Shown: positions 7,505 through 56,300 of the stretch, in pieces
Position numbering within the stretch: position 1 is the stretch's first letter
Layout of the letters: each line of letters begins with the position of its first letter
NCBI GenBank assembly: GCA_002773395.1
Contig: PFBI01000006.1
Span: 156,657-220,656, forward strand
Source of the DNA: Candidatus Kaiserbacteria bacterium CG10_big_fil_rev_8_21_14_0_10_47_16
GTDB taxonomy: Bacteria; Patescibacteriota; Minisyncoccia; Phycocordibacterales; UBA918
Direction of reading: 5' to 3'
DNA length: 64,000 nt
Translations under genes and position numbers: made by a program
The notes under the pieces: generated by a model
Told to the model about the DNA's origin: nothing
Seen by the model: the letters and a program-made list of their open reading frames with translations, nothing else
The model's database searches: none

Positions 7505-7549
7505 TAATACAATCCTACGCCACAGGCGTAGGATTGTATTATTATTTTT
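7503..7549 (+). terminator. rho-independent terminator after rbfA
   Basis: Perfect long stem aatacaatcctacgcc/ggcgtaggattgtatt followed by a T-run. Confidence 0.7.
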
Positions 7550-7741
7550 GTGCGCGGGAGAGGACTTGATTCTTACAGAATCTGTTCAGGCTGCACCACA
7601 AGAGTACTTTGATTTTCTAAAACGCAAGCGTTAAGAAAATCTGGTCGTATGATATTTTTCATACCTCAAAATATCGACAACCTTTTCAAGTCCTCTCCAT
7701 ACAAAGAAACACCAGAGAGACTCTGGTGTTTCTTTACTTTG

Positions 7742-7823
7742 TGCGCGGGAGAGGACTTGAACCTCCACGGATTACTCCACCAGTTCCTAAGACTGGCGCG
7801 GCTACCAATTACGCCACCCGCGC
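7742..7823 (-). tRNA. tRNA-Leu (anticodon TAG), type II with long variable arm
   Basis: Manual cloverleaf on the reverse complement: acceptor GCGCGGG/CCCGCGC, anticodon loop CTTAGGA, long variable arm, T-loop TTCAAGT. Confidence 0.8.
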
Positions 7824-8009
7824 ATATTTGTGACCGGTGCAGAATATCATGATATGCGAGTATCGTCACGGGTTTTGTGTATGTCATCACGAGTCACTAA
7901 GTCGCTACGCTCATAAGTGCTGGCGATCCCGCCTCGTCTGTGGCAAAGCCGCATGACTCCGGCTCGGACAAGCTAAAATCCTGACGCAGGTCAGGATTTT
8001 AAACGCTTG

Positions 8010-8082: not shown

Positions 8083-8221
8083 GACTGTACCATTGTGACT
8101 GCACTGTGCAGTCTGAGGAGTGCTCTTAATGTTAAGAGCGGTAGATGAGTCTAGTAGACTCATCTACCTCCACCACCTCCGCTATGGGCGGATGTAGGTC
8201 AGAGTGTACTAAATTACACCA

Positions 8222-8397: not shown

Positions 8398-8469
8398 GGC
8401 CAGGTGGCGAAGTGGTAACGCTTCGGTTTGCAAAACCGACATGCACGGGTTCGAACCCCGTCCTGGCCT
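8398..8469 (+). tRNA. tRNA-Cys (anticodon GCA)
   Basis: GGCCAGG-TG-GCG AAGTGGTAA CGC-T-TCGGT TTGCAAA ACCGA...ACGGG TTCGAAC CCCGT CCTGGCC T. CCA is not encoded. Confidence 0.8.
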
Positions 8470-8535
8470 CAAACGAAACGGAGTGAAGTGCAGAGGTCAG
8501 GACAAAAGCGACAACAGTCGCTTTTGTTGAGGTTC

Positions 8536-8616
8536 GAACGGCGGAGCGATGTTTTGGCTATTTCTAATGCCAAAACCGCGAGCCGCGTCCAGCATTCTTA
8601 TGAACGTAGTGAATTA
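8536..8616 (+). ncRNA. conserved ~80-nt hairpin element downstream of tRNA-Cys (copy 1 of 2)
   Basis: cggagcgatgttttggctatttctaatgccaaaaccgcgagccg...cttatgaacgtagtgaattag. It is near-identical to 56216-56300. The stem gttttggc/gccaaaac becomes gtttcggc/gccgaaac in copy 2 (compensatory change). Confidence 0.4.
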
Positions 8617-8682
8617 GAAAAAGCGGGACGAACCCCGTCCTGGCCTCAAACGAAAAACTGCCAGTATACTGGCAGTTTTTTG

Positions 8683-30951: not shown

Positions 30952-31022
30952 GGAATAATCTCCTTCTTTTCCAATGTTTTTATAGCATATTTGGATAGTT
31001 TGTCAATATACGGTGCTTGGGG

Positions 31023-31367
31023 CCGGGCTCGGTCACGAATCACTAAGTATATTTTTGCTACGCTAAAATATACTTAGTGTTCTCGACCCGTGAAAAGCAA
31101 TTCAATATTGCTTTTCACCACGCCTCCCTCGTCCACAGGACGCGGCGCTCCGGCTTTCGAGCCGAGGCTCGGCGTCTAACTCTAGTTCACTACGTTCACA
31201 AGAGTTACCTGCCCGAGCATTTGAATTCTTGCATTAGAAATAGCAAAAATATACAAATGCTTTTCGAGCCCGACCGTAGGACGCGCCTGCGTCCTACTCC
31301 CCAAGCACACATACACAAAAACCGCCCTGAGGCGGTTTTTGTGTATGTGTGCTTGGGGCCGGGCTCG
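31023..31367. repeat. ~307-bp insert next to tRNA-Phe, flanked by an exact 19-nt direct repeat of the tRNA 3' end (gtgcttggggccgggctcg at 31023-31041 and 31349-31367)
   Basis: The direct repeat is visible in the sequence. The interior is hairpin-dense and includes a 28-bp perfect palindrome at 31299-31358 that incorporates the tRNA acceptor end. Confidence 0.5.
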
Positions 31368-45836: not shown

Positions 45837-47168
45837 ACGTCTGGCCTTCTCGTGTTGCCGAATCTTCTCGAGGGCTTTTGCCTCAATCTGACGAATACGC
45901 TCTCGCGTTACACCGAACTCTTTCCCTACCTCTTCGAGTGTATGGTAAGTACCATCAATGAGTCCGTGACGCATTTCAAGAATCTTCCGCTCCTTCTCTG
46001 ACAATGTGTCGAGAATTTCCTGCATCTGATCCGCAAGAATACGGTGTGCAACTTCTTGGTCTGGAGAGATGATTTTGTCGTCTGAGATAAAGTCAGAGAG
46101 ACGTGAACGATCATCATCGTCAGCTCCCACCGGCAGCTCGAGTGAGATGGTATCCTGACTAATCTTTTCAATTTGGTAAATCTTTTCTACTTCAACGTTC
46201 ATTTCAGTTGCGATCTCTTCTGGCATTGGATCACGCCCAAGATCTTGTGCTAACCGTCGTGACACCTGCTTGTACTTCGCCATTGTTTCCACCATGTGCA
46301 CCGGAATACGAATCGTACGCGATTGGTCAGCGAGCGCTCGGGTAATTGCCTGACGAATCCACCATGTTGCATAGGTCGAGAACTTGAATCCCTTTTCATG
46401 ATCAAATTTATCAACAGCCTTAAAGAGACCGAGGTTCCCTTCCTGAATAAGGTCGAGGAGTGTTAAGTCGGGAGACCGACCAACATACTTCTTTGCAATC
46501 GAAACCACGAGACGGAGGTTTGCGCGCGCAAGCAAGTTGCGAGCCTCTTCATCCTCCTCAATAATACGCTTCGCAAGATCTCGCTCTTCCTGTGCTGAGA
46601 GGAGTGGGTACTGTCCAATTTCTCGGAGGTACATTTGAATAGAGTCGTGTCCGTTATCAGAACGTTTGTAGACGTTGCGCTTATCGTGCAACATGTCGCT
46701 CACGTCATCCCCAAGCATTCCTCCGCTTTCAAGAATATCAACACTTGCCGTCGCGAGACGTTCGTAGAGATCTTCAAGAAATGGTACGTCGCGCTCAATC
46801 TGTGGAAACGCTTTGAGAATTTCGTCGTATGTGACATATCCACGATCACGCCCTGCTTGCAGGAGCTGCTGCGCTTTACTTTCGTTTTCTTTTTCGAGCT
46901 TTGTGCGTTTCTTCGGCTTCGCAGGTACGACGCGCTTTGCCGCTTTCTTTGCAGTTTTCTTAGGTGCTGTCTTCTTTACTGGCTTCTTGGTAGCTTTCTT
47001 CACTACCTTCTGAGTCTTCTTTTTGGCTACTTTTTTAGTAGTTTTCTTCGTTGTTTTTTTGGCAGTTGTGTTTTTAGCTTTCTTTGAAGCCACTTTTTTT
47101 GTTGCCTTTTTTACGGTTTTTTTGACCGCTTTTTTTACTACTTTTTTTGTTGCCTTTTTGGCAGCCAT
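45822..47168 (-). CDS. rpoD: RNA polymerase sigma-70 factor with about 100-aa lysine/alanine-rich (AKK-repeat) N-terminal extension
   Basis: Regions 2-4 (...[18 protein letters not shown]..., ...[24 protein letters not shown]...). N-terminus [21 protein letters not shown].... Confidence 0.9.
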
Positions 47169-47223
47169 AGTGAAGCCCACTATACCTTACACCAGAGAAA
47201 AGTCCAGAGCCCCGAGGATTCTC

Positions 47224-56215: not shown

Positions 56216-56300
56216 GTGAGCCGGAGCGATGTTTCGGCTATTCCTAATGCCGAAACCGCGAGGCCGGGGAGGAAGTGCTTATGAGCGTAAGCGAATTAGC
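56216..56300 (+). ncRNA. conserved ~80-nt hairpin element downstream of tRNA-Gly (copy 2 of 2)
   Basis: ccggagcgatgtttcggctattcctaatgccgaaaccgcgaggccg...cttatgagcgtaagcgaattag; preceded by a long terminator hairpin (56176-56214). Confidence 0.4.

Follow-up and report, generated by a model that had tools for sequence, protein, structure and literature searches.

The closest described counterparts of the locus analyzed here are the integrative elements of tRNA genes, in which a tyrosine integrase duplicates the att site, and the CIMEs. Their repeat extends from the T-loop of the tRNA to or through its 3' end, with an upstream copy that makes a functional tRNA complete and a downstream copy left as a displaced fragment; elements can accrete in tandem at one tRNA, and CIMEs have no recombination genes between the repeats. 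The IS200/IS605-derived PATEs and the REP/BIME sequences (Y1 HUH) are small and non-coding and consist of imperfect hairpins in which the stems covary and the shape is kept; they insert at a short fixed site without target duplication, form tandem arrays and contain mini-hairpins of the GCGNAGC type, which are classic stable hairpins of single-stranded DNA. The folded attP of CTXphi (XerCD) and the integron attC sites have the layout of site, short loop, inverted site copy, cargo and site, as is left by single-strand exchange with an attachment site in hairpin form. Casposons and CRISPR spacer integration (Cas1) share with our locus an insertion at a tRNA 3' end and a long target duplication that keeps the gene intact.

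We propose that the 168 bp behind the tRNA-Leu(TAG) gene of a Candidatus Kaiserbacteria bacterium, located in the 64,000-nucleotide stretch of DNA analyzed here (the window), represent a non-autonomous T-loop insertion element in which the left hairpin supplies the replacement tRNA 3' end, and we give this reading a probability of about one half. The loci and contigs that were fetched and compared with the window are labeled by L-numbers (L129, L103 and so on). All of the above features of integrative elements and CIMEs are shared, including the repeat from the crossover loop to the 3' end and tandem accretion (at L065 and L105), but no integrase gene lies inside the element and no cognate integrase is known, the inserts measure only about 110–320 bp, a covarying hairpin core is found over many tRNA targets, and there is an inverted copy of the target, designated T'. 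The likeness to PATE and REP sequences includes the tandem arrays, the mini-hairpins and, in L129, an insertion without target duplication at a short fixed site (T54/T55, and a left flank ending in GGT), but most copies carry target-specific arms (T and T') and a long duplicated target segment, no conserved cleavage tetranucleotide is defined, and no Y1 transposase is found among the annotated genes of the window. The CTXphi and attC layout is the same, but here a tRNA T-loop takes the place of dif or attI as the target, hairpins totaling about 100 nt form the cargo, and the GTTC...GAAC polarity is opposite to that of attC. Unlike the products of casposons and CRISPR integration, the duplications vary in length (19 to more than 45 nt), no terminal inverted repeats are shared by every copy, and there is no Cas1. 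The elements differ from MITEs in those variable duplications, in inverted ends (T'/T) that are specific to each tRNA, and in having diverged copies. The features of the locus are as follows.

7741 to 7823, minus strand: intact tRNA-Leu(TAG) gene (ARAGORN; Rfam tRNA, 54.4 bits; 83 of 83 nucleotides identical in L129)
7738 to 7760, minus strand: proximal 23-nt copy (T), T55 to the tRNA 3' end plus AAA
7703 to 7735, no strand assigned: terminator-like hairpin right after tRNA-Leu, flanked by an A-run and a T-run
7685 to 7698, minus strand: T', 14-nt inverted complement of tRNA positions 54–67, GGAGAGGACTTGAA in the tRNA sense
7568 to 7687, minus strand: family-2 core (match to covariance model R1, built without the window sequence; seed-alignment covariation)
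7590 to 7642, minus strand: additional module of 53 nt within the core, made of the hairpin GATTTTCTTAACGC/GCGTTTTAGAAAATC and AAAGTACTCTTGTGGTGCAGC
7547 to 7569, minus strand: distal 23-nt copy (T), adjoining the rbfA terminator and identical in L129
7497 to 7549, no strand assigned: bidirectional terminator hairpin of rbfA, the right-hand element boundary

A first-pass annotation had reported that the 3' end of this tRNA is duplicated as an exact 23-nt direct repeat, and both copies are indeed present: the window has exactly two occurrences of the 23-mer TTTGTGCGCGGGAGAGGACTTGA, at 7547–7569 and 7738–7760, with a 168-bp spacer that has no credible open reading frame, and no such pair arose in 100 dinucleotide shuffles even with up to three mismatches allowed. 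The repeat was also correctly taken as the 3' part of tRNA-Leu, except that the gene is on the minus strand (7741/7742–7823 by ARAGORN and Rfam); in the tRNA sense the repeat reads TCAAGTCCTCTCCCGCGCAC plus AAA and runs from T55 in the T-loop through the acceptor 3' strand and the discriminator to three trailer bases. The distal copy follows directly on the rbfA terminator, as had been described. Three independent assemblies (JGI 3300025018, JGI 3300004210 and Logan SRR6053076) show an identical arrangement, and both 23-nt copies are found in six contigs of a related species, and thus an assembly artefact, which the annotation had itself raised, is excluded.

The spacer hairpin aaagaaacaccagag/ctctggtgtttcttt of the same annotation is real, with 15 bp of 100% complementary arms (7703–7717 and 7721–7735) and a 3-nt loop, but it is a terminator-like stem placed directly after the tRNA rather than an arbitrary hairpin of the spacer. 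What had been missed is T', which reads TTCAAGTCCTCTCC on the plus strand and is an exact inverted copy of the T-arm inside the spacer. The order in the tRNA sense is therefore tRNA, terminator-like hairpin, GTAT, T', structured core and distal repeat, with the core made up on the minus strand of a long hairpin (S1, 7643–7682), CTGAAC (7584–7589) and a second hairpin with a TGTAA loop (S2, 7568–7583). The nested 53-nt module is absent from the orthologous element of L129 and has a covarying homologue in the tRNA-Gly element of L012. T' can pair with either T copy. When folded in the tRNA sense it pairs with the distal T and closes a core of four hairpins (MFE −84.9 kcal/mol versus −48.6 ± 4.4 in shuffles; z = −8.3), and in the plus-strand fold the complement of T', TTCAAGTCCUCUCC, pairs with the tRNA-proximal T copy around the terminator.

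The first-pass annotation saw the same layout at tRNA-Cys, tRNA-Phe and rpoD, and the first two cases hold, with direct repeats of 27 and 19 nt, respectively. The repeat at rpoD is unrelated, being a 48-nt-period repeat that encodes the lysine-rich N-terminal tail of the sigma-70 open reading frame and not a duplicated gene end. The related features in the window, together with the rpoD repeats, are these.

7897 to 7917, minus strand: family-1 motif hairpin behind tRNA-Lys(CTT), without direct repeat
8452 to 8655, plus strand: tRNA-Cys element, the site of which is empty in L129
31013 to 31367, minus strand: tRNA-Phe element
47092 to 47111 and 47140 to 47159, within 46941 to 47180, minus strand: rpoD-tail repeats, low-complexity coding sequence of the sigma-70 open reading frame
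56278 to 56299, plus strand: family-1 motif hairpin behind tRNA-Gly(GCC), without direct repeat

In both the tRNA-Cys and the tRNA-Phe element the tRNA is followed by an inverted copy of its 3' part that is split by a hairpin at the junction of acceptor stem and T-stem. The tRNA-Cys element comprises T (8452–8478), T' split by the hairpin at 8492–8539, a family-1 core (8540–8628) and the distal T (8629–8655), and the tRNA-Phe element comprises T (31349–31367), a terminator, T' split by a hairpin at about 31265–31308, the family-1 motif (31182–31202), extra material, and the distal T (31013–31031). The two spacers have in common the conserved hairpin CTTRTGARCGTARYGAAYTAG, the family-1 motif, which is also found behind tRNA-Lys and tRNA-Gly and always in the orientation of the tRNA, and in all such elements follow five of the six tRNAs of the window.

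Two further kinds of sequence were noted near these genes. A pseudo 5' tRNA-Lys fragment, CCGCCCATAGCGGAGGTGGTGGAG, lies at 8140–8191 on the minus strand, 109 bp upstream of tRNA-Lys and beside a 14-bp perfect hairpin, and is 83% identical to the first 24 nt of the gene, and L129 has an analogue in an exact 22-nt 5' fragment of tRNA-Leu(TAG) (L129 2211–2234) about 55 bp upstream of that gene, showing that duplications of 5' ends occur besides those of 3' ends. A terminator, AAAYGAAAAACTGCCAG..CTGGCAGTTTTT, stands directly after the distal T of tRNA-Cys in the window (8655–8678), and nearly the same one stands directly after the distal T of tRNA-Leu(TAG) in L129 (1887–1912) and nowhere else in the window or L129; it may travel with the elements.

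The element behind tRNA-Leu(TAG) belongs to a second core family, which was recognized in spacers that have the repeat but lack the family-1 motif. Family 2 is defined by a long hairpin S1 (..GGTTGYCGATATTTTG..CAAAATATCGACAACC..), UGNAC, and a 5-bp hairpin S2 with a UGUAA loop and a 3' strand that runs into a T-loop-like sequence, and the window element has each of these parts. In 20 family-2 copies from other genomes the helices are paired in 86.6% of cells, versus 64.1% in column shuffles, double-sided changes number 73 cells versus 26, and the covariation score is 0.454 versus 0.131, a value matched in 0 of 500 shuffles and compared with 0.06–0.14 for slid controls. The covariance model R1, built from these 20 copies with the window copy left out, has a single significant match in the window, at 7568–7687 on the minus strand (31.9 bits, E 8.6e-6), which covers the full model from 1 to 67. 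For family 1, 7 of the 11 pairs of hairpin P5 covary (MAFFT and RNAalifold); only P5 was recovered, as hairpin P4 is too variable for its sequence to be aligned, and the P3 and P4 pairings were read by eye.

Several candidate identities for the cores were rejected. The reading frames of a small open reading frame in the core differ between copies, as judged by eye, and a hammerhead-like reading of CUUAUGA..GAA has, by our own inspection, misfitting stems and lacks the essential G5, with no match in Rfam. At the gathering threshold only six tRNAs in the three loci match Rfam, the extra matches at E values up to 10 are only miRNA-like, fall on the long hairpins and were judged meaningless, no known ribozyme, HEARO, ROOL or GOLLD family is matched, and ARAGORN finds neither a tmRNA nor a tRNA-like gene there.

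An unlikely but credible account is that the host keeps a structured non-coding RNA gene here and there is no mobile element. The closing helix of T' and distal T would then mimic the stack of acceptor stem and T-arm in the neighboring tRNA, with the inserted hairpin as a second arm, and would offer a tRNA-like handle that serves processing or some function related to tRNA; the repeat would be conserved because the helix is needed. This would accommodate the strong structural conservation and covariation, the stable tRNA-sense fold closed by T' and T, the complete conservation of the block of S2 and T relative to L129 (the relative with an RbfA 82% identical), an orientation that almost always follows the tRNA, and the strand-specific loop motifs and tandem G.A pairs. 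However, the tRNA and the core are kept apart by a strong terminator-like hairpin, with no convincing promoter in between, and nearly all pairs of the core helices are Watson-Crick, wobble being very rare and equally so on both strands (G.U 19 versus A.C 13 in about 760 cells), which is atypical of functional RNAs. As a test of RNA against DNA, neither this count nor that of changes in T' (12 sense-compatible, 6 antisense-compatible) is decisive. Moreover, T' also pairs with the discriminator and trailer, which would be left free in a tRNA mimic, many copies keep the core without T and T' (tRNA-Lys and tRNA-Gly in the window among them), the same tRNA in relatives shows presence or absence of an element or one of the other family, and there is no Rfam match. 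We lean towards an intermediate at the DNA level, probably single-stranded, rather than an RNA gene, on account of the nearly pure Watson-Crick helices, the GCGNAGC hairpins, and the terminator that insulates the core from transcription of the tRNA.

A motif scan with one genome per species gave at least 119 loci, which in the matches listed are mostly from Patescibacteria (Paceibacteria, Saccharibacteria, Kaiserbacteria, Nomurabacteria and Yonathbacteria). The spacer core of the tRNA-Leu element, too, belongs to a family that occurs behind other tRNAs in other genomes, a check that the first-pass annotation had suggested. In at least 53 loci the motif is downstream of a tRNA on the same strand, mostly 83–160 nt away and nearly always in the orientation of the tRNA, and at least 15 tRNA identities are involved. 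The layout is constant: the tRNA and a terminator-like hairpin come first, then T', in most cases interrupted by a conserved hairpin (for example AGCAAGCAAACTGCTTTGCTTGCGT), followed by GAAM, the core, about 11 nt, and a direct copy of the tRNA from C56 on, which extends through the trailer and terminator in L018, L022 and L099. A downstream repeat of at least 11 nt is found at 50 of 128 tRNAs in the fetched loci from the matches listed, a sample selected for carrying the motif and hence biased towards occupied sites. Among the repeats of at least 14 nt in the fetched loci (n = 37, at least 15 identities), 23 start at T55–R57, 3 upstream of T55 and 11 later, the last coinciding with mismatched copies. 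The distal T is exact at some loci and decayed or interrupted at others, and copies within a genome have diverged with compensatory changes.

This spread bears on another possible source of such a repeat, namely that a conventional integrase-driven element (a prophage, ICE or island) inserted at the T-loop of tRNA-Leu and then lost nearly all of its interior, so that attL and attR remain with 168 bp between them, or two att sites as in a CIME. Integration of the T-loop class reportedly produces just this direct repeat from T-loop to 3' end, its classic footprint (Reiter 1989; Williams 2002; both cited in PMC9897764), and the lack of recombination genes between the repeats would suit a collapsed element. 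We nevertheless consider it quite improbable, as the interior is a conserved, covarying module found at dozens of loci, at other tRNAs and in other candidate-phyla classes, the insert sizes cluster at about 110–200 bp, T' is foreign to ordinary attP arms, and no integrase is annotated in the 64 kb.

Copies away from tRNAs have a local hairpin (GAGAAG-hairpin-GCAAGA) in the place of T', and the left flanks of nine copies end in GGT, as is always the case in copies away from tRNAs; the neighborhoods of tRNA-independent copies have no mobility gene in common, and the only find there was an IS3-like fragment in L009, which is unrelated. Family-1 cores are found behind protein genes in L023 (minus strand) and L007 (plus strand), where the hairpin preceding the core has the final codons and the stop codon in its 5' arm, and in L023 the core is followed by a second, diverged copy of the gene end (CCAAAACGTTAG versus CCAAGCGTTAA). 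Family-2 copies without a nearby tRNA occur in L048 (minus strand, about 5600) between ftsZ and trxB-like genes, and in L026 and L034 beside trxB-like genes; the recurrence next to thioredoxin-reductase-like and FtsZ genes in several Patescibacteria could represent conserved non-tRNA sites.

Nested or tandem copies are seen at L065, with family 1 followed by family 2. Two identical 135-bp family-2 units (T, terminator, T' and core) follow tRNA-Arg(CCT) in L105 (minus strand, about 7623–7960), and family-2 tandem arrays are also listed at L105 (plus strand, 2006–2100) and L037 (minus strand, about 150). In head-to-tail units the S2 end ..GTAAGGT provides the left-flank GGT of the next unit.

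Outside the Patescibacteria, the strict motif in the matches listed mostly hits a different, REP-like repeat of Alphaproteobacteria. It has the GAGCG-N-AGCGA hairpin CTTATGAGCGTAGCGAATTAG at its center and is intergenic, with multiple hairpins and flanking palindromes of the CCCCTCTCCC/GGGAGAGGG type. Its hosts are Erythrobacter, Bauldia, Rhizomicrobium and Sphingomonadales (L015, L017, L027, L040, L041, L046, L049, L052, L060, L062, L063, L082, L084 and L085), and it appears to be a separate family that uses the same mini-hairpin. Searches of IMG/VR for the strict family-1 motif gave two irrelevant viral contigs, and of 22 phage or plasmid contigs with the family-2 pattern none was convincing by the model. 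Literature searches, incomplete in coverage and hence weak evidence of novelty, found no account of these elements. They belong to a widespread family, apparently not described before, of small structured elements that occupy tRNA T-loops in Parcubacteria and in further bacteria of the candidate phyla.

The relative L129 has the same synteny of IF-2, RbfA, tRNA cluster, rhodanese and pilins. The tRNA-Cys site is filled in the window and empty in L129, tRNA-Leu(TAA), which has no element in the window, is followed in L129 by one of family 2 with T' and an exact repeat of 20 nt, and tRNA-Lys is followed by family-1 subtype C with T' in L129 and by subtype D without T' in the window. At tRNA-Leu(TAG) itself the two share an orthologous family-2 core and the identical distal 23-nt copy, L103 has a family-1 element with a decayed repeat, and L115 and L126 have no element; an exact-match metagenome scan with the 3' 38-mer of tRNA-Leu retrieved only contig L126, an empty site in a rearranged context. 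Empty sites in relatives, which the first-pass annotation had proposed to look for, thus exist for both tRNA-Leu(TAG) and tRNA-Cys, and its wider suggestion of a recurrent insertion architecture at tRNA 3' ends is supported by these and by the copies behind other tRNAs, with rpoD removed. L134 equals L129–L133 for 433 nt after rbfA, with an identical RbfA protein, and then has a different family-1 subtype behind tRNA-Lys (alignment columns 434–585), which by its sequence is a strain-level replacement. These comparisons show gain, loss and turnover among relatives, with the T-loop as the junction.

In L129 the terminator and T' of the tRNA-Leu(TAG) element are replaced, 5' of the core, by a tRNA-Leu fragment from the anticodon to T54 (TAGGAACTGGTGGAGTAATCCGTGGAGGT), and the core therefore splits a partial tRNA-Leu copy (34–76) exactly between T54 and T55, with no target duplication. 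This larger partial copy begins only 14 nt after the intact gene, and there is a 5' fragment upstream as well, so partial tRNA duplications do occur here. They would favor an explanation without any mobile element, in which the 3' region of the tRNA was duplicated locally in tandem, or through replication slippage, and the spacer is ordinary intergenic DNA. We regard this as most improbable and largely refuted, since the spacer core belongs to a widespread family, the junction is at the same position at many tRNAs, and T' and the conserved hairpins would be left without an origin. Both the collapsed prophage or CIME remnant and plain duplication fit the conserved core poorly.

The tRNA-Leu(TAG) gene is identical between the window and L129 (83/83), as is the 45-nt block of S2 and T (100%); elsewhere the element, like the terminators on its flanks, is remodeled or unrelated. 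The first-pass annotation had named an identical arrangement under purifying selection in relatives as evidence against its own view, and this was found in part, in that L129 keeps both 23-nt copies amid unrelated surroundings. The unchanged 23-mers argue that the insertion at this locus is old and that the distal copy, rather than being a fresh, decaying scar, has been kept up by selection or by conversion from the tRNA gene. The complete conservation of S2 and T, although the adjoining terminators are unrelated, likewise does not look like a pure scar.

In the insertion reading that we prefer, a small, gene-less element built of hairpins would have entered the tRNA-Leu(TAG) gene at its T-loop, the left part of the element bringing a replacement segment from T-loop to 3' end (the proximal T) and a terminator, so that the tRNA would stay intact with its end regenerated on insertion. 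The proximal 23-mer would be element-borne, the original 3' segment would be displaced downstream and survive as the distal 23-mer, and the predicted empty junction would be GTGGAGGTTCAAGTCCTCTCCCGCGCACAAAAATAATAATAC. The element may well require a helix at its left end, and in the tRNA-adapted form the 5' arm of this helix would encode the replacement tRNA 3' end and the terminator. This offers a possible reason for T', which would stay complementary because the left end must be a hairpin, its 5' arm doubling as the tRNA 3' end. Such an element would be immobile alone and moved in trans by an enzyme encoded elsewhere, presumably a hairpin- or guide-dependent one, and the intermediate would probably be a folded single strand. 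An element-borne proximal T and a displaced distal T would account for the fixed junction, T', the terminator within a palindrome, the tRNA-independent copies, the L129 configuration, and distal copies that range from exact to decayed.

In favor of the insertion element we count the fixed T55–R57 junction, the T54/T55 split in L129, the covarying core, the turnover at orthologous sites, the tandem and nested copies, the GGT left flank, the protein-gene ends in the left hairpin, the range of distal copies from exact to decayed, and the lack of any integrase, transposase or reverse transcriptase among the annotated genes of the window. Against it are the divergence of copies within a genome, unlike that of actively transposing MITEs or IS elements, a model of one lineage per tRNA that is hard to square with the spread to 15 or more tRNA identities, and the lack of elements in IMG/VR phage contigs. 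The annotated genes of the 64-kb window include no integrase, transposase or reverse transcriptase and are housekeeping genes (ligase, GatCA, IF-2, gyrase, ATP synthase, ClpB, DnaG, RpoD and aminoacyl-tRNA synthetases); neither an excised or circular form of the element nor its enzyme was seen.

The elements also have practical consequences. The small repeats break short-read metagenome assemblies, and contigs from three other samples (L002, L003, L004 and L127) end exactly at repeat copies or inside tRNA-Phe, at window positions 7582, 7762, 8082 and 31415. They also yield spurious open reading frames, such as the 148-aa protein that gene callers predicted over tRNA-Leu(TAG) and its element (L129 1882–2328; L130–L134 3349–3795), a region of unannotated tRNA and element. 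As markers they would be useful for strain-level variation.

If the insertion reading is true, a large share of the tRNA genes of Parcubacteria, Saccharibacteria and their relatives carry small structured passengers that annotation pipelines ignore, and the locus would show how insertion into an essential single-copy gene is made harmless, by carrying the 3' end in a functional hairpin. It would also point to an enzyme of the proposed kind in candidate-phyla bacteria. More tentatively, and in our view with the odds against it, these may be a new class of mobile elements whose insertion in the T-loop leaves essential, single-copy tRNA genes alive and whose choice of target is programmable. Here the left-end hairpin would encode the replacement tRNA 3' end and the terminator, and T' would be kept because the hairpin is the recognized or recombining form, be it single-stranded DNA in a folded state or a guide RNA for the target. 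Since the arm and the target must match, retargeting would need only an altered base-paired arm and no change of protein, which, if true, would mean that programmable target choice exists in a lineage with tiny genomes.
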